Shown here: piece by piece, positions 1 through 8,060 of the stretch
Position numbering within the stretch: the stretch's first letter is position 1
Layout: each line of letters starts with the position of its first letter
Notes under the pieces: generated by a model
Database searches by the model: none
The model's input: only the letters and a program-made list of their open reading frames with translations
What the model was told of the DNA's origin: nothing
Source of the DNA: an uncultured Dehalococcoidales bacterium
GTDB taxonomy: Bacteria; Chloroflexota; Dehalococcoidia; Dehalococcoidales; UBA2162
Assembly: GCA_964453525.1 (NCBI GenBank)
Contig: CAYVOV010000023.1
Coordinates: forward strand, 262-64,261
DNA length: 64,000 nt
Direction: 5' to 3'
Translations under genes and position numbers: made by a program

Positions 1-39
1 AATAGCCTGAAAATGAACGCTTGAACTCAGAAAACAGAC

Positions 40-82
40 GCACACGAAGGGATGTAATAGTCCCTTTTTGTGCGTTTTTTTT
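40..82 (+). terminator. Rho-independent terminator-like hairpin (first of a tandem pair)
   Basis: Stem GCACACGAAGGGA (40-52) / TCCCTTTTTGTGC (61-73), 8-nt loop, then a T8 run at 75-82. Confidence 0.6.
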
Positions 83-93
83 GCCATTTTCCA

Positions 94-133
94 GGGGATA
101 GTTAGAGGGTGACCTGATACTATCCCCTTTTTT
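94..133 (+). terminator. Rho-independent terminator-like hairpin (second of tandem pair)
   Basis: Stem GGGGATAGT (94-102) / ACTATCCCC (119-127) followed by T6 (128-133). Confidence 0.55.
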
Positions 134-179
134 CGTTTCCACAACAGTTCATATCCGGAATACCCTGGACAGGGGGGTA

Positions 180-208
180 TTGACGACCAAGATAGTCGAA
201 TATAGACT
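180..208 (+). promoter_or_regulatory. Candidate sigma70-type promoter of the 231-1925 cassette
   Basis: TTGACG (180-185), 17-nt spacer, TAGACT (203-208), located right after the two terminators and 23 nt upstream of the first start codon. Confidence 0.35.
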
Positions 209-230
209 TAACCATACTAGGAGGTGTATT

Positions 231-422
231 ATGGCAATCATTTTAGGGAGTGGCGCTTTCAGGATATGGGTAGGAAAAGACAAGAGGACTGGAAAGAGTA
301 ATAATATCGGTATTAGATTACAGGAGAAGAAATTTCCCAGCCAGGTAAATTTAGACCAGACTGTCCAGACGTTAGTAGACAAGATAGAGCAGCTAATACG
401 TAAAGAGTGCTCTTGGGTGTGA
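231..422 (+). CDS. Small hypothetical protein (63 aa), first gene of the cassette; possibly a small DNA-binding/antitoxin-like protein
   Basis: Internal ATG of ORF 180..422, preceded by a strong SD (TAGGAGGTGTATTATG). No recognisable motif; a beta-strand-then-helix pattern (NIGIRLQEKKF...LVDKIEQLIRKE) is only suggestive. Confidence 0.4.
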   Translation: MAIILGSGAFRIWVGKDKRTGKSNNIGIRLQEKKFPSQVNLDQTVQTLVDKIEQLIRKECSWV

Positions 423-439
423 TTTGTGGGACATAAAAT

Positions 440-1135
440 ATGAGTAAATTCTTCATACCTGCAAATCGTCCAGAAGACTGGGCGCCTTTGTTAGCCGAAC
501 CTGGCAAGCACTGGAGAACAGGCTACTCAGCAAAAGCACTTGCCTACTGCTGGCAAGAAGCTAAGGGCTTTCCTGCAGAAGTGAAAAAGGTGTTCCGGGA
601 CTCCGGTATTCCCTCGTTCAGGAACGCTAAAATGCTAATGGCTTTCCCCGAATACAAGGTATCGTTGCCAGGTGGGAAGAGAGCCTCACAAAGTGACATC
701 TTCCTTCTGGCCAGGGGAGACGACAAGTTAATCTCTATCACAGTAGAGGGGAAGGTCGATGAACCATTTGGAGAGGTAATATCCGATTGGAAACTAAAAG
801 ACATGGGTGGCAAGAAAGACAGGCTTGCCTTCCTATGTGACCAATTAGGGGTCAATCCCGCTACGGTTGATAACATTCACTATCAACTCCTACACAGAAC
901 GGTATCTGCCATAATTGAAGCACAGAACTTCAATGCCCCAATTGCTTTAATGCTTGTTCACGCCTTCGAGAAGACCACAGAGAAGTATGATGCAAGCTTC
1001 CACGCCTATTGTAACCTCTTAAATTTATTTGGCAAAAGGGGTAGGGAAAATACCATTGTATCATTAGGAAAATCGGGCTCGGTTGATTTGTATGTAGGGT
1101 GGGTCAAAGGTAATGATAAGTACCTAGTATCGTAG
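440..1135 (+). CDS. Hypothetical protein with a PD-(D/E)XK-like nuclease motif (231 aa)
   Basis: SQSD-IFLLARGDDKLISITV-EGK gives a D...(17 aa)...ExK pattern in a strand-like context. The conserved-looking N-terminus is FIPANRPEDWAPLLAEPGKHWRTGYSAKALAYCWQEA. Starts 18 nt after the previous gene. Confidence 0.45.
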   Translation: MSKFFIPANRPEDWAPLLAEPGKHWRTGYSAKALAYCWQEAKGFPAEVKKVFRDSGIPSFRNAKMLMAFPEYKVSLPGGKRASQSDIFLLARGDDKLISITVEGKVDEPFGEVISDWKLKDMGGKKDRLAFLCDQLGVNPATVDNIHYQLLHRTVSAIIEAQNFNAPIALMLVHAFEKTTEKYDASFHAYCNLLNLFGKRGRENTIVSLGKSGSVDLYVGWVKGNDKYLVS

Positions 1136-1198
1136 TAGGCCCCGTCGTTAGCACTCAATATTTTATTTTGTTCTGGATACTGTAAAGGAGGTCATTAA

Positions 1199-1423
1199 AT
1201 GCAAAACGAATCAAATACAGATGAACCAATGGAAATTTTTGATGTTGATAATGTTCGTATAGGTTTTAATCCTTCTGTTGATACTCCTCGAGGGAAGACT
1301 AGAAAGTCCCTTACTATAGATGTTCACGTTACAGATAGGTGGTATAGATTTAGGCTAGAAGATGTAGTCTGCGATCTTTTCAATCGCTTCTATAATGAAC
1401 AGGTAGCTAGTAGATATGAATGA
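1199..1423 (+). CDS. Small hypothetical protein (74 aa)
   Basis: Strong SD (AAGGAGGTCATTAAATG). Its 3' end overlaps the next gene by 8 nt (1416-1423), suggesting translational coupling. Confidence 0.45.
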   Translation: MQNESNTDEPMEIFDVDNVRIGFNPSVDTPRGKTRKSLTIDVHVTDRWYRFRLEDVVCDLFNRFYNEQVASRYE

Positions 1424-1925
1424 TAGTATACAAAGAGGCATTACTGATATTGAAAATCTCTTCAAGTGTGTATGCATCGACTTTGATGATGATATTTGGA
1501 GATATAACATTCCTTCCTCATCCGGCTGGTATTTGATAGAAACAAATACACCAATTGAGATACTGAAATCCATAGGCACTCCACAGCACAAGGCTCATAT
1601 CAACATACCTAAAACTATAGGAAGTGCCGTTAGTTTAATCAATCTTGGTGCTGCCATCCAGCAGTCAGGTGATGACCACTACGTAGTCTATAACGGAGAA
1701 GCCCGAAATTTGAAAGCACGTGCGAGAGAGCATATATGCGGTCATGGTAAAACGTTCTGCCTTGGATTGGCTGAATATCCGATCTTGCGTAAATATAGTT
1801 GGCGGTTCTGCTATGCGCCGGCATCCGAATGTGGAAATTTGCGGGATGCTGACAAAGCAGTGAGAGTGCTTTTTGAACAGGTGTGGAGAGCAAAACATGG
1901 GTGGCCGATTTTATGTAAGAAATAG
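1416..1925 (+). CDS. Hypothetical protein with divergent GIY-YIG-like nuclease motifs (169 aa)
   Basis: SGWYLIE (GIY-like) and YVVYNGEARNLKARAREH (YxG-A-NL-R-H, YIG-like), plus a later LFEQVW...GWPILC. The spacing between the two motifs (~55 aa) is much longer than canonical. Confidence 0.4.
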   Translation: MNDSIQRGITDIENLFKCVCIDFDDDIWRYNIPSSSGWYLIETNTPIEILKSIGTPQHKAHINIPKTIGSAVSLINLGAAIQQSGDDHYVVYNGEARNLKARAREHICGHGKTFCLGLAEYPILRKYSWRFCYAPASECGNLRDADKAVRVLFEQVWRAKHGWPILCKK

Positions 1926-2011
1926 CGTAGGATATTACGCAAGAAAATGGTATAATTATAGTCGTGGAACATGTCCAAATAGTGTCACCTGGGCACAAGT
2001 AGGAGGTTAAT

Positions 2012-2107
2012 ATGTTTGGGATTACAGTGGGTAATAGGCGTGTACGTTTACATATTGATATTGCTGGCTTCGGTACCAATATTTCAAGAAGCAGGTGCAC
2101 AGCTTGA
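2012..2107 (+). CDS. Possible 31-aa basic peptide
   Basis: AGGAGG SD 5 nt before the ATG and an extended -10 (TGgTATAAT, 1948-1956) upstream. Too short to validate. Confidence 0.2.
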   Translation: MFGITVGNRRVRLHIDIAGFGTNISRSRCTA

Positions 2108-2161
2108 CTTAGTCAGGATAATTGCCGAGTTCCTCCAGAGGATACTCTGGTAGAGAGCAAA

Positions 2162-2193
2162 ATGGGGAGTGTGGCGTTCACCATGCTCCCCAT
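2162..2193. terminator. Bidirectional terminator-like hairpin between convergent island genes
   Basis: ATGGGGAG (2162-2169) / CTCCCCAT (2186-2193) with T-rich flanks on both strands. Confidence 0.45.
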
Positions 2194-2265
2194 TATTATT
2201 GTGTTTAAGTGACCTAATCACTAACGGGAACCTAATAACTGCCCTTTGCATTCAGATGTAACTTC

Positions 2266-3807
2266 TCATCCGGTATTCTCATTCATTCGACTTGCTTTCA
2301 GCCTTTCATATTCAGTTTCAACTTCTTGCCATTGAAGATAACCGTATGGGGATTTCTTCTTATATTCAGGGTATTTCTTAATCCATTCATCTCTAATTGA
2401 AAGCCAGAAGTTTTCAACTGCCTTGTAACCTGCTTTATTGTCGGGTGGTCCGCCCTTTTGTTCTACAAGATCAATAAATTCCTGTTCAATTTGTCTCTGC
2501 CGTGTCTCATTGCTGGTCTTCGCCTTGACATCTACGTCTTCTAGGGCTTCTTTGTCATCAAAAGTCTGCTTATCGAGAATAAACCTCTCCCTAGCGTCTG
2601 CTGGCAGAAGATCAAACCCCTCATGCAACGCCTGTAATTCTTTTTCGTGCAACTTTAGCCAGGTTTCCATCTGTTCGGGCGTAACTTCGTACCCGACCAT
2701 TTTCAGGAGGGTAGCGTTGAATGGCGGTGTGGCGTAGCCCGGCCCTTCTACTCTATTCGCAAGCGCCCATGTCTCGATAAGGGAACCCGTTCTCACCGGA
2801 TGAAGCAACACCCGCCTGTCCGAATCCGTTTTTACCCATTCGAGCAGTTTACGTCTAATGCACAGCTGGCGAGAATACATAGAATCGTCAGGAAAAGAAG
2901 ATATTGCGAAACCTCTAGGTTCTGTTTCTAGAACGTGCTTTATTGCTCCCTGTATCTCCGGTTGTTCAGGTAGGTTATTCCATAAAGGCCCCTTGCTTAA
3001 GTAACTAAGCCAATAGGCAGCTACCAAGTCATCCTCTTCTTGCAAGACATCATCAGGAGATGCAAACTCAGCCATAAGTTTCATATCTTCAGGAGGCTTG
3101 CTCCTGACGCTACGCCATACGGCATCTTCCACCGAACTCACGCTAATAGACGGACTCGTAAGTGGTGTGCCAAATTTCTCAATTTTGGTTAACGCTTCTT
3201 GAGAATAATTTAAATGAGATACTTTGCCTAACCTTAATGCTGTTGCACGTTCCCAGTTAAGCATGAATGCTGAGTCTAGATTTGTGGTATCAAAGTACTT
3301 TTCTCCTGTGATGTGAGAGGCACGCTCAAGTAGGCTGTATAACCAACTTTGTCTGATCAGCAATAAGTTCCTGTTGACCTTGTCAGAATATGCACCTTGT
3401 CTGGAGGGTAACAATTCATTCAAACCTGGGGGAAAAGATTGGGGGAAAAGGTTTCGGATATGGATTATCCATTTTGCCTGCCTAATGCTAATCGGACTTC
3501 CCATCGCTAGTGAGGCTCTCCAAATATCAAACAGATCTTTGTTGGCTTCCGGTGGTAACACATATTGCACCGAAGCGCCAATAGACCATGGTTCATCTTC
3601 ATCTGTTAAAGGGAGATTACGACCTTCCGATATTAACTTAATCATTGTTTCTTCGGTAGGAGGGACTTCTCCCATTTCATCTTTTATGAATTTTCTTAAC
3701 TCCACTGCAAGCGCAAGTCTTGGGATGTCTTTATCTCGCAATGCTCTAGTGTATATAAGCTGTTTAATATGAGGTTTTATTGATGGCCGTCCTCTTTTTG
3801 TAGACAT
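2266..3807 (-). CDS. Orphan 513-aa protein, unknown function
   Basis: Long uninterrupted ORF in low-GC DNA. Basic N-terminus (STKRGRPSIKPH), acidic/coiled C-terminal third. No motif I can assign. Confidence 0.6.
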   Translation of the reverse strand: MSTKRGRPSIKPHIKQLIYTRALRDKDIPRLALAVELRKFIKDEMGEVPPTEETMIKLISEGRNLPLTDEDEPWSIGASVQYVLPPEANKDLFDIWRASLAMGSPISIRQAKWIIHIRNLFPQSFPPGLNELLPSRQGAYSDKVNRNLLLIRQSWLYSLLERASHITGEKYFDTTNLDSAFMLNWERATALRLGKVSHLNYSQEALTKIEKFGTPLTSPSISVSSVEDAVWRSVRSKPPEDMKLMAEFASPDDVLQEEDDLVAAYWLSYLSKGPLWNNLPEQPEIQGAIKHVLETEPRGFAISSFPDDSMYSRQLCIRRKLLEWVKTDSDRRVLLHPVRTGSLIETWALANRVEGPGYATPPFNATLLKMVGYEVTPEQMETWLKLHEKELQALHEGFDLLPADARERFILDKQTFDDKEALEDVDVKAKTSNETRQRQIEQEFIDLVEQKGGPPDNKAGYKAVENFWLSIRDEWIKKYPEYKKKSPYGYLQWQEVETEYERLKASRMNENTG

Positions 3808-3945
3808 TCTTTTATTTTTTCCTTAAATTCACAGACTCGTATATAATTATTTCCTTTATGTATATATTATAATCTCTTACAATAATAATATAATTCATAC
3901 AAAACAGCAATGTCAAAAAGGATAGGCTAAGCAAGCGGGTCTCAA

Positions 3946-4828: not shown

Positions 4829-5300
4829 ATTGACGTTTCGGAGTCAAGAGATGCAATCACAAAACCAAACCGGTGATATCATGAAATGGATACTTGCAAT
4901 AGTAGAAAAAGTTAATCAGGATAGTAGATTAGCGCCTAATAAAGCTATTCTAAAGCGCATGCAAGAAACAATAGACATTTATGGCTCTGCCAAAATTTGG
5001 GAAGTGATTAAGCAGTTTTCTATAAACATTGGTTCGAACAAAGCAATGCTCATGGAAGAACTGTTCCATCAGTGTCCGAATTTTCCTGATTTATTTGAAA
5101 CGGATAAGACTATACCACTCGCCCTTAAGCAGTGGTATGAACATCACTCGGTAGAGGCTAATCGATTTCAAAGAGTTACTTCAGCTATTTTGAGAGCTAA
5201 TCCGGCTGTCGAATGGGAATTCGATACTTCACCTGATGCCGATAGAGATTTAACTCCTATTATGGATATGCTATTTCGTAATACGGAGGTATCAAAATGA
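4809..5300 (+). CDS. Hypothetical protein (up to 163 aa) translationally coupled to the recombinase; candidate accessory or directionality factor
   Basis: Overlaps the upstream gene by 20 nt and the recombinase start by ATGA (5297-5300). No recognisable motif; the start is uncertain (alternative ATGs at 4851 and 4881). Confidence 0.4.
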   Translation: MRKEENKLTFRSQEMQSQNQTGDIMKWILAIVEKVNQDSRLAPNKAILKRMQETIDIYGSAKIWEVIKQFSINIGSNKAMLMEELFHQCPNFPDLFETDKTIPLALKQWYEHHSVEANRFQRVTSAILRANPAVEWEFDTSPDADRDLTPIMDMLFRNTEVSK

Positions 5301-7042
5301 AGGAAAAAGCGGTAACTGCAGAACGATTTGATAGCCTTGTTGATATGGCTGCTAAAGAAGCAAGGTACGAGGAAGGCTTTGGAGTAAAGGGATGTGATCT
5401 TGCCAATTCATGTTGGTGGGTTTCGTATGTCAGACAAAGTTGGGAGGAGCAAGCGAACAACAATCGCTTGCCAGAATACTTACTCACCTGCGCCAGAGAG
5501 GCAAGGAAGCTGGGTGTTGTAGTTCCGATAGAATACATACTCTATGATACTGTTACGGGGGAGCATCTTGAGCGCCCCAATATGATACACCTTCGCAAAT
5601 TATTAACAGAACGGCGTACCTCAGGAGTAATCTTCCCTGCTCTAGACCGCTTGTCCCGGGAGCCATTGCACCAACAAATCTTCGAACTGGAAGCAGCTCA
5701 TTATGAGATTCAAATTCATTACGCTGACGTACCTAACGGAAACGATCCAAACAGCCAATTTACCAGAACAATTTTAGCTCATGCCGCTAAACTGATAAAA
5801 CTGGCAAACCGGCGTAACAATCGCGGTGGTAATATCGGACGGGTGGTAAGCGGAAACGTGCCTGCCGGTAAGCCATCTTATGGTTATATTTATCGCGCAG
5901 AATACCAGTCATTAGAACATGGTAAGCGTAAACTTATCAGGGCTTGGTGGGACATAAACGCACTAGAAATCGATGGTACATATAAAATGGGGTCCGAGGC
6001 CTGGGTAGTGAAACAGATTTTCCGCTGGATTGGACTTGAAGGGAGAAGCACTTTCTGGGTTTCCGAAGAACTTAATCGAATGGGAATCAAACCTCGATAT
6101 GCCGATAAATGGTCTCCAGCTCTGGTTGGTTTCATCTGTAAAAACCGCGCGTATACAGGAAAACATGCCTATAACAAAGCCTGCTATGTCACCAATCCCG
6201 ATAGGCCGCTAAAAGATATTACTGCCGAGATAAAGCGGACACTACGAAAAGCTAAACCGGAAGATGACTGGGCACATTTTGAAGTTCCGTTGTTGGTATC
6301 CGAAGAATTATGGCAGCGAGCAAATGACAATATCCGTGAGCGAGGCAAGGGAAGAGGAAAAGCCGGGAAAACGATTCCAGCACTGTTCAGGGCAAGGGTC
6401 TTTTGCCCAAAGTGCGGTCATATTATGAGGCTTCATAGGGATTCGACCTGCCCCTGGCTTACTTACTATGTCTGCCGTACTCAAGGATGTAGAATGAAGT
6501 TCATCCGTGTTTCCCAGCTTGATGACATAGGATGGGAGAATGTTGTTAACCTTTTACAGAAACGTTCATTTATTGATGCCAAAGCAGAGAATACGAGTAA
6601 AGATGATGGTGGAATTCAGAAACGGATCAGACTAGAGTTGTTTCAAAAGAGGGAAGCAGAGAGGAAAATCGCAAGAATTCAAGATGATCTCCTCAGCGAT
6701 GAACCAGTCATTACCAAACAAGAAGCTCTTACTAAAATAGGAGAACTTCGAAATGTTATTGAAAAAGCCGACAATGAAATTGCCAGACTACAAGGCATAG
6801 TCCAGACAGCAAAGCAGTCTGAAGAAAAAATTGAAGCATTAAAGAAAGCTCTTGAGGAGCTAAGAGATATAAATCTTAATACGGCAACTTTCCAGCAGAA
6901 AGCCGAGTGGATAGCTCGTCTTGGTGTCAAGGTATATCCAGCTAAGGATTTAACCAACTATCACATAAAATGCGGAATAAAGATTACAGAGCCCCAGAAG
7001 GTTTCATGTTACAAAACCAGCATCGCATCACCGAAGCTATAG
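5297..7042 (+). CDS. Large serine recombinase/integrase
   Basis: Resolvase-type catalytic domain (VSYVRQS with catalytic Ser, ERPNM, ALDRLSRE), recombinase domain, Cys-rich zinc ribbon (CPKCGH...YYVCRTQGC), and a long coiled-coil C-terminus. Confidence 0.85.
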   Translation: MKEKAVTAERFDSLVDMAAKEARYEEGFGVKGCDLANSCWWVSYVRQSWEEQANNNRLPEYLLTCAREARKLGVVVPIEYILYDTVTGEHLERPNMIHLRKLLTERRTSGVIFPALDRLSREPLHQQIFELEAAHYEIQIHYADVPNGNDPNSQFTRTILAHAAKLIKLANRRNNRGGNIGRVVSGNVPAGKPSYGYIYRAEYQSLEHGKRKLIRAWWDINALEIDGTYKMGSEAWVVKQIFRWIGLEGRSTFWVSEELNRMGIKPRYADKWSPALVGFICKNRAYTGKHAYNKACYVTNPDRPLKDITAEIKRTLRKAKPEDDWAHFEVPLLVSEELWQRANDNIRERGKGRGKAGKTIPALFRARVFCPKCGHIMRLHRDSTCPWLTYYVCRTQGCRMKFIRVSQLDDIGWENVVNLLQKRSFIDAKAENTSKDDGGIQKRIRLELFQKREAERKIARIQDDLLSDEPVITKQEALTKIGELRNVIEKADNEIARLQGIVQTAKQSEEKIEALKKALEELRDINLNTATFQQKAEWIARLGVKVYPAKDLTNYHIKCGIKITEPQKVSCYKTSIASPKL

Positions 7043-8040
7043 AAGCGGTATTTCTCCGTTATAGCTTCCTGGTATGCCCGTTTTATCAGATCATTGCCGG
7101 CGAAGGCGGAGACAAGCATCAACAGGGTTGACCTCGGCAGGTGGAAGTTCGTTATCATGGCATCTACCACCCGGAACCTGTACCCGGGCAGGATGAAAAG
7201 GTCTATCCAGCCTTCGAACGGCCGTATCTCAGCAGTATTATTCGCCTGAGCTGCCGTCTCGACAAGCCTGACCGAGGTGGTACCGACGCAGATGACACGC
7301 CGTCCCTCCGACCTTGCCAGTGACAGCTCCCCGGCGACTTCCCTGCTCAATACACCGTATTCCCGGTGTATTTGATGCTGCTGCGGGTCTTCCTCACGCA
7401 CCGGGCGGAAGGTGTCCAGTCCGACATGGAGCGTGGTGAAAAGGCATTTTACTCCTTTTGTTCTGATTTGACTCAGGAGTTCCGGCGTGAAGTGAAGCCC
7501 GGCGGTAGGCGCGGCGACGCTGCCGGCAACGTCGGCATAAACGGTTTGATAGCGTTCCGGGTTCTCAAGCGGGACATGGATGTAAGGAGGCAGGGCTATT
7601 TCACCGACCTTAAAGAGCGGCTTTTCATCGGAGAATCGGAGCAGCCGGATTCCCCCTTCGCCAATCCCGATTGCCTCGGCAGTGACTCGTGAATCACTTC
7701 CATCACGGGATATTTCAATTACAGCGCCGGCTTTAACGCGTCTGGCAGGTTTGACAAGGGCTTCCCAGGCATCACGACGCTGCCGGCGCAGCAGCAGGAT
7801 TTCCAGCTTCCCTCCACTCTCAGCCTGTTTCCCTTTAAGGCGGGCGGGAATGACCCGGCTGTTATTGAAGACTAGGACATCACCTTCGCGGAGAAATTCA
7901 ACCACTTCATAGAACCTGCGGTGCTCAAATGACCCATCTGCGCGGTTAATCACCAGTAGCCGTGATTGCGTCCTCGGCTCAACCGGAGTCTGAGCGATAA
8001 GCTCCGGTGGTATAAAATAATCAAAATCGCTGGTTTTCAT
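7009..8040 (-). CDS. queA: S-adenosylmethionine:tRNA ribosyltransferase-isomerase
   Basis: MKTSDFDYFIPPELIAQTPVEPR, ...GLHFTPELL..., C-terminus RFYSFGDAMLVL. The ORF extends to 8049; the ATG at 8040 matches the usual QueA N-terminus. Confidence 0.9.
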   Translation of the reverse strand: MKTSDFDYFIPPELIAQTPVEPRTQSRLLVINRADGSFEHRRFYEVVEFLREGDVLVFNNSRVIPARLKGKQAESGGKLEILLLRRQRRDAWEALVKPARRVKAGAVIEISRDGSDSRVTAEAIGIGEGGIRLLRFSDEKPLFKVGEIALPPYIHVPLENPERYQTVYADVAGSVAAPTAGLHFTPELLSQIRTKGVKCLFTTLHVGLDTFRPVREEDPQQHQIHREYGVLSREVAGELSLARSEGRRVICVGTTSVRLVETAAQANNTAEIRPFEGWIDLFILPGYRFRVVDAMITNFHLPRSTLLMLVSAFAGNDLIKRAYQEAITEKYRFYSFGDAMLVL

Positions 8041-8060
8041 GGGAAGCATCTAATTTCCCG

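Follow-up and report, generated by a model that had tools for sequence, protein, structure and literature searches.

A four-gene cassette with two predicted nucleases on a Dehalococcoidales recombinase island: a probable patchwork of independently travelling units

Near the start of a 64,000-nucleotide stretch of DNA from an uncultured Dehalococcoidales bacterium (contig CAYVOV010000023.1; the whole stretch is hereafter referred to as the window), four co-directional genes, here termed A, B, C and D, follow closely upon two tandem terminators. A first-pass annotation made from the sequence had described them as a candidate defence or addiction module, in which two predicted nucleases (B and D) are each preceded by the gene for a tiny partner protein (A and C). 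The question raised by this locus is whether the four genes belong to one system, to two partner-nuclease pairs, or to units of separate origin. The tight packing and sizes of the four open reading frames (ORFs) were borne out by the sequence and the ORF list, and, on the sequence, all four encode proteins, are subject to purifying selection and are not chance ORFs. Relative to the copies in the closest related locus found (L170), A, B and C show dN/dS ratios of 0.13, 0.125 and 0.32, respectively.

Genomic association of the four genes

The distribution of the four genes in other genomes and metagenomes argues for a patchwork of three independently travelling units, carried as cargo of a serine-recombinase element next to queA, a reading which we consider reasonably probable. 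The first unit, comprising a promoter and genes A and B, would be a self-contained module found in at least five genomic contexts. The second would be the small gene C, which is found also without B or D, and the third would be gene D, a putative stand-alone divergent GIY-YIG nuclease that is elsewhere solitary and mostly situated among housekeeping genes.

The sampled loci included 80 genome loci for B, relatives of which are encoded in 253 stretches in species-representative genomes, and 80 metagenome loci for D. In tblastn searches of A-D against 169 loci, B was found in 85 loci and D in 85, with both present in locus L094 only, and A and C were found in none. The survey of homologues that the first-pass annotation had proposed as a check of its single module thus went against it: the four genes never occur together elsewhere in the loci sampled, and B and D are found together once (L094) in 160 further loci, there without A or C.

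In L170, the closest relative of the cassette, A, B and C are arranged as in the window and share 89%, 82% and 81% amino acid identity, respectively, with their counterparts. At the DNA level, homology to the window ends after the first 18 nt of D, and C is followed there by unrelated sequence and not by a D gene. Homologues of gene C are rare, with only two among 5.8 billion clusters, and no informative similarity was found for its product. In addition to the copy following B in L170, a C homologue (72% amino acid identity) occurs in L171 and L172 downstream of a gene for a 492-aa protein combining metallo-beta-lactamase (MBL) and lamin-tail (LTD) domains. The DNA similarity of these two loci to the window is restricted to positions 1197-1416, i.e. 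the C gene. The C-D pair is unique to the window among the loci sampled. The A-B pair recurs in five contexts, all within one B subclade, with a gap of 17-19 nt between the two genes in L170, L177, L178 and L179, and in the latter three loci it is flanked by different sequences. In L010, B is intact (75% identity) and retains all site residues in the absence of A, the place of which is taken by a gene for a PKD-domain protein, between B and a segment shared with L179. Taken together, the patterns in these loci make it reasonably probable, on the sequence comparisons, that the cassette is a mosaic of the form [promoter-A-B] + [C] + [D]. Apart from a distant serine recombinase, no gene of the island was found to be shared with any of the B or D loci.

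The segment shared by L179 and L010 is 149 nt in length and 85% identical, and is located just upstream of A in L179 (1838-1985) and upstream of the PKD-domain gene in L010 (3735-3882); a search for transfer RNA and Rfam RNA in this segment found none.

A single system for defence or addiction that combines two nuclease effectors with a pair of small partners would be in keeping with the tight co-directional packing, the one promoter-like element and one downstream terminator, and the overlap of C and D. It would also be in keeping with L094, a 4.6-kb sediment contig which encodes, in order (322-3847), a TIR-like gene (PADLOC effector match; E-value: 9e-10), a B homologue, a 385-aa PDC-S11-like gene and a D homologue, with B and D 1.3 kb apart. 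No other sampled locus, however, holds all four genes, the closest relative carries A-B-C but lacks D, C is found alone, and B and D each occur alone in at least 80 loci, the latter mostly in housekeeping surroundings. A single four-gene system is consequently regarded as very improbable.

The alternating layout of small gene and nuclease gene had also suggested two separate partner-nuclease pairs. This did not hold for C-D, found in the window only, or in general for A-B, which is confined to one subclade and of which L010 retains B without A. Outside the A subclade, small ORFs upstream of B are frequent but mutually unrelated, and no conserved small ORF is located upstream of D among the D loci. 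A variant of the idea, in which B and D would have positionally conserved but non-homologous small partners, was dropped, as ORFs of this kind, although frequent, share no relationship with one another.

An exhaustive HMMER scan of 1.84 billion representatives identified five homologues of gene A, 64-73 aa in length and sharing 35-61% identity with it, while two further matches were discounted as repetitive proteins. The A protein has no match in Pfam, PHROGs, PADLOC, NCBIfam or PDB. The gene for one homologue, P0211 (64 aa; 61% identity), precedes that for a RusA resolvase by ~80 nt in the phage-like contigs L173-L175, which also carry genes for dNK, dCTP deaminase or a PHP-domain protein. 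P0211 was not found in phage GenBank records.

These features invite the question whether A-B is a true two-component system, either a toxin-antitoxin (TA) or addiction pair in which A is the antitoxin or inhibitor of B, or a two-gene defence system, with the A family constituting dedicated nuclease partners. The order of A and B, their 17-19 nt spacing and their own conserved promoter are kept in five contexts with different flanks, A has a strong and B a weak Shine-Dalgarno (SD) sequence, and both genes are under purifying selection. Furthermore, a mREase_II-like gene adjoins the module in L179, and RusA, downstream of P0211, is another nuclease, the gene 3' of which differs between L173 and L174. 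Set against this, L010 harbors an intact B without A, and no A homologue was found upstream of B in the other B loci examined. The five A-B instances belong to one close lineage (71-87% B identity), such that the pairing could be inherited synteny, and the three contigs with A and RusA count as one observation, their modules being 97-99% identical. Finally, neither protein has a match among TA or defence models. A two-component system is therefore considered rather unlikely, and an obligatory antitoxin relation between A and B is likewise unlikely, given how commonly B is found in the absence of A. The A protein is better viewed as a small accessory protein restricted to a single subclade of B, and a role as a regulator or modulator is more likely for it than one as an obligatory antitoxin. 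A bolder version, in which promoter, A and B together are a new kind of two-gene nuclease system, self-contained and horizontally mobile, that serves in defence or addiction, with A gating or targeting B and the A family serving as generic partners of unrelated nucleases (DUF6946 and RusA), is likewise doubtful.

Predicted nuclease folds, distribution and roles of B and D

The B protein matches the Pfam family DUF6946 (PF22187) over its full length (E-value: 6.8e-81; 271.2 bits against a cutoff of 27; profile positions 1-213 of 214). It has 674 homologues, of which the 120 listed are all single-domain DUF6946 proteins of ~231 aa. The family was created from component 6,732 of the 'dark' part of the AlphaFold database (Durairaj et al. 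2023, PMC10584680). In the full-text literature searched, DUF6946 is mentioned in two papers only, in passages that assign it no function: one paper names the family, and the other lists it as a HigB-1 partner in an automated TA prediction. An equation of DUF6946 with the toxin TumE, described in the paper that names the family, was rejected, as TumE corresponds to DUF6516.

Across 51 diverse members of the family, E71, Q84, E103, K105, E108, Y148, Q149, H152, R153 and H174 are invariant, while D86 is conserved in at least 90%. The D...ExK pattern that the first-pass annotation had singled out in B (D86, E103 and K105) is thus a family-wide feature. In the AlphaFold2 (AF2) model of B (predicted local distance difference test, pLDDT: 88), D86 starts a strand (87-93) and E103-G-K105 ends the next (96-105), the resulting beta-hairpin being followed by a conserved helix (148-163) and another strand. 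A putative catalytic D...(D/E)xK signature on consecutive beta-strands is accordingly conserved in the family. In a Foldseek comparison with BFVD, the best match had an E-value of 3e-3 (probability 0.91; template modelling (TM) score 0.34), and the weak matches were mostly PD-(D/E)XK proteins, namely UL24, DUF2726, restriction enzymes, RecU and Cas4. PDB sequence searches with B, both as a single protein and as a profile, returned noise only. From the model and the conserved motif, B is predicted with moderate confidence to be a restriction-endonuclease-like PD-(D/E)XK nuclease, most likely a Mg2+-dependent endonuclease using E71, D86, E103 and K105 as its proposed site.

None of the 87 homologues of D carries a precomputed Pfam domain. 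When 42 members were scanned against Pfam, 34 matched PF01541 below threshold at E<=1 (best E-value: 1.2e-4) and 18 matched PF20815, with no other family recurring. The residues G37-W38-Y39, Y92, G94, E95, R102, E105, H106 and E154 are invariant in 42 sequences. The GIY motif corresponds to GWY (37-39) and the YIG motif to YVVYNG (89-94), suggesting a site formed by Y39, Y92, R102, H106 and E154. Both motif strands, the arginine of the first helix and the predicted catalytic glutamate are conserved, while the tyrosines Y39 and Y92 are 53 residues apart, in place of the short spacing of canonical GIY-YIG domains. The AF2 model of D (pLDDT 93.5) comprises a strand (37-43), an insert, a second strand (89-96), a helix (99-108), a third strand (129-135) and a second helix (147-161). 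As modelled, this b1-[insert]-b2-a1-b3-a2 order is that of the GIY-YIG topology with an insert, the latter spanning residues ~44-88 (~50 residues) and forming three short helices (47-52, 64-70 and 72-76). The motifs pointed out in the first-pass annotation are therefore invariant in the family, and its reading of D as GIY-YIG-like with a long insert is supported by profile and model.

In a comparison of the D profile with PDB sequences, the YVVYNGEAKNLKARAREH segment aligned weakly to the YIG-Arg segment of UvrC and the remainder was noise. When residues 45-86 were cut from the D alignment, both motifs aligned to canonical GIY-YIG proteins, which were the sole targets above noise in a small target set; this set included UvrC and I-TevI sequences and, from the loci sampled, two UPF0213-type proteins, which match PF01541 at 5e-17. 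Among the 50 PDB matches listed for D in a Foldseek search, T4 EndoII (2wsh_C) has the highest TM score (0.31/0.39), which is not significant (E-value: 3.7). Beyond the core, D consists of the N-terminal 36 residues and the insert only, and no recognizable DNA-binding domain was detected in it. The profile and model together support the prediction that D is a divergent GIY-YIG domain with a ~50-residue helical insert, and a nuclease.

DUF6946 is encoded in at least 253 of 185,579 species-level genomes, belonging to many bacterial phyla and, among the loci kept, one archaeal metagenome-assembled genome. It is present on seven of 72,556 plasmids, the records of which show hypothetical proteins and uninformative contexts. 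Neither B nor D occurs in 50,697 phage GenBank records, and 2.9 million viral contigs yielded one match for B (an IMG/VR contig) and none for A or D. When 81 non-identical B anchors were compared, no family of neighbours was present in three or more loci, and the 150 immediate neighbours of B match 118 Pfam families, none of them more than twice. A minority of the B loci show neighbours of restriction or defence type, including a type I restriction-modification system adjoining B, DndB, Vsr and Dcm, as well as REase_II, mREase_IV, GmrSD and HNH proteins, the TIR-like and PDC-S11-like genes flanking B and D in L094, and the mREase_II-like gene located after B in L179. The neighbours of D are mostly housekeeping genes, encoding tRNA synthetases, AAA_33/KTI12-like and APH-like kinases, Hfq and diphthamide synthase. 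In six to nine loci, D adjoins a pair of APH-like and AAA_33 kinase genes, which represents lineage-specific synteny. The search for a conserved neighbour was consequently dropped, as B has none and D has only this kinase-like pair.

Two DUF6946 copies are found ~16 kb apart in Salirhabdus euzebyi (NZ_JACHGH010000001.1; L046 3979-5721 and L048 4648-7425). Three blastn segments, ~1.7 kb in total and 74-84% identical, span the gene along with short flanks on both sides. This suggests a small unit that was duplicated or acquired twice.

The sparse, patchy and horizontally scattered occurrence of B, its variable context and its minority of restriction and defence neighbours lead us to a restriction-like or anti-mobile-element role as the best guess for this protein. 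As the context of D is mainly housekeeping, a cellular nuclease role is at least as likely for D as one in defence. In the patchwork, B and D, both predicted nucleases, would act independently on DNA.

B and/or D could alternatively be selfish homing-type endonucleases or ordinary repair or structure-specific nucleases, inserted in a permissive island and playing no part in defence. GIY-YIG and PD-(D/E)XK folds each include homing endonucleases and repair enzymes, which lends this explanation some plausibility. The location of D between housekeeping genes in many loci, such as those with the APH-like and AAA_33 pair, the abutment of D on C with a recombination joint within the first codons of D, and the solitary occurrence of B at highly variable sites in many phyla are in line with it, as is the pairing of an A homologue with RusA, the place of which 3' of A would be occupied by B in the window. 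For a homing enzyme, however, D is small (169 aa) and lacks a recognizable DNA-binding domain, and the absence of B and D from the phage records, along with their near absence from viral contigs (one and none, respectively), is unusual for homing endonucleases. This alternative is regarded as unlikely.

Several observations weigh against the patchwork of independently acting nucleases. The fold assignments of B and D rest on motifs, the order of secondary structure elements and consistent weak matches. The Foldseek search of the B model against PDB gave no significant match, the top one being HamA (8vx9; E-value: 0.18; TM 0.22), and that of D returned none at E<=0.001. The D protein of the window, furthermore, falls below both Pfam GIY-YIG cutoffs (14.5 and 13.7 bits vs 22.4 and 22.6). 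The structure search recommended in the first-pass annotation thus left both proteins without a significant counterpart, although the weak matches of B are enriched in PD-(D/E)XK folds. Many neighbours of B are plainly metabolic. B and D lie within 2 kb of one another in two independent places, the window and L094, which is more than two rare genes without linkage would be expected to show and could point to a loose connection in function or habitat. A precedes a nuclease gene in each of the two contexts known for it (DUF6946 and RusA), a pattern suggestive of a true nuclease-partner role; this role is ranked lower, and the sample is too small to carry weight. Lastly, the left end of the island lies off the window.

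Expression signals and the host island

The features of the cassette and its surroundings are listed in Table 1. The two tandem upstream terminators proposed in the first-pass annotation are corroborated by their folds. The hairpin of the second aligns between the window and L177, indicating that it was kept with the A-B module there, and the DNA homology of these two loci begins at window position 65. The claim that the cassette has its own promoter stands in part. A match to the bare consensus is not above chance (8 sites vs 5.3 +/- 2.8 in shuffles), but in L177 and L179, the modules of which are only 70-75% nucleotide-identical to that of the window, the two hexamers are conserved, as is the GACAGGGGGTAT upstream of them. 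For this reason the element is accepted as the likely promoter of A-B.

Table 1. Coordinates of the cassette features, the island genes and the related loci; positions are those of the window unless a locus is named.
Feature	Position	Strand	Details
Intrinsic terminator 1	36-85	+	Hairpin 36-77 (-24.7 kcal/mol; z -6.4; 0/200 shuffles equally stable) and U-run; ends an upstream unit lying off the window
Intrinsic terminator 2	93-134	+	Hairpin 93-128 (-21.7 kcal/mol; z -4.3) and T6
Promoter-like element, likely of the A-B module	180-208	+	TTGACG-17-TAGACT; consensus scan 9/12
Gene A	231-422	+	63 aa; ATG start; SD AGGAGGT at 218-224, 6 nt upstream
Gene B	440-1135	+	231 aa; weak SD
Gene C	1199-1423	+	74 aa; strong SD AAGGAGGT at 1185-1192, 6 nt upstream
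Gene D	1416-1925	+	169 aa; 8-nt overlap with C (ATGAATGA)
Candidate fifth small ORF	2012-2107	+	31 aa; ATG start; AGGAGGT 5 nt upstream
Alternative fifth small ORF, overlapping	2016-2153	+	45 aa; TTG start; strongly hydrophobic (GLQWVIGVYVYILILLASVPIF)
Intrinsic terminator closing the co-directional unit	2161-2204	+	Hairpin 2161-2194, 14-bp stem and T-rich tail (-25 kcal/mol; z -4.8)
Large serine recombinase	5297-7042	+	Pfam Resolvase, Recombinase and Zn_ribbon_recom; PHROG integrase (E-value: 2e-48)
queA	7009-8049	-	Queuosine_synth (E-value: 3e-128)
C homologue with MBL and LTD protein	L171 59-1823; L172 3-1494
A homologue with RusA	L173 3592-4321; L174 322-1051; L175 2162-2897		Phage-like contigs

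In the patchwork, the A-B module would supply the promoter, and C, D and perhaps a fifth ORF would be read through to the terminator at 2161-2194. The three units are thus probably co-transcribed in the window from the promoter of the first unit to this terminator. The overlap of C and D would represent a local recombination joint, and any translational coupling between them would be accidental. A fifth gene of very small size may lie between D and the closing terminator (2012-2153), putatively encoded by one of two overlapping ORFs, for which no homologue was found in any of the loci sampled.

The cassette is situated on a low-GC, recombinase-bearing island, as previously recognized, with a GC content of 42% across the first 4 kb compared with ~50% further on. 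The 3' end of the serine recombinase gene overlaps that of queA by 34 nt (7009-7042), where the GC content rises, and this overlap is probably the right junction of an element integrated at the end of queA or within that end. A search for flanking repeats and att-like sites around the cassette found the terminator hairpin only. A 513-aa ORF (2266-3807, minus strand) converges on the cassette and has no match in Pfam, NCBIfam, PADLOC or PHROGs.

Comparison with known systems

Three elements are new here, namely a functional hypothesis for DUF6946, a long-insert variant of the GIY-YIG domain and a small recurring A-B module. DUF6946, formerly a 'dark' family without a function, gains a hypothesis open to testing, that of a solitary restriction-like nuclease for which catalytic residues can be named. 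The D family represents a GIY-YIG variant with a large insert that lacks a Pfam family and is missed by the current Pfam models. Should the A-B module prove to be functional, it would constitute a new nuclease system of very compact form. The locus also calls for caution in annotation, since a neat layout of small genes and nuclease genes on an island can be a chance juxtaposition and not a system.

The view that the cassette corresponds to no named system was upheld, as searches of A-D against NCBIfam, PADLOC and PHROGs gave no match; in PADLOC-DB v2.0.0, at a threshold of E<=1, no family was found for A, B, C, D or the 513-aa neighbour. The A-B module resembles type II TA modules in its gene order, a small gene with a strong SD closely preceding a larger gene for an enzyme, and in having a promoter of its own. 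In contrast to such modules, the small genes are missing beside the putative toxins B and D in the great majority of cases, and C occurs also without D. A bicistron conserved across homologues, as in type II TA modules, is not observed, A-B being confined to one subclade and C-D to the window. Searches of Pfam, PADLOC and NCBIfam gave no match to TA families for A-D.

The D protein shares with GIY-YIG domains the GWY and YVVYNG strands, R102 and H106, a glutamate (E154) on a later helix and the order of strands and helices. The counterparts of R102 and H106 in I-TevI are R27 and H31, which are separated by the same four-residue step. Canonical GIY-YIG members have ~10-11 residues between the GIY and YIG tyrosines, and D differs from them in having ~50 residues between the motifs and in lacking an appended DNA-binding domain.

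The B protein resembles PD-(D/E)XK nucleases in its E-x14-D-x16-E-x-K arrangement on a beta-hairpin, followed by a conserved helix (Y148, Q149, H152 and R153). A spacing between D and ExK such as that of B falls in the range of EcoRV and BamHI. It differs from this superfamily in lacking a statistically significant structural match (TM 0.2-0.34) and in having a conserved N-terminal helical region with a HW(K/R)TGYSAK motif, which matches nothing. B is not accompanied by a methyltransferase, and, unlike HamA of the Hachiman system (HamA/HamB), its top PDB match, it has no partner helicase. In its architecture, B does not differ from other members of DUF6946, to which the predicted PD-(D/E)XK assignment and the A partner gene are added here.

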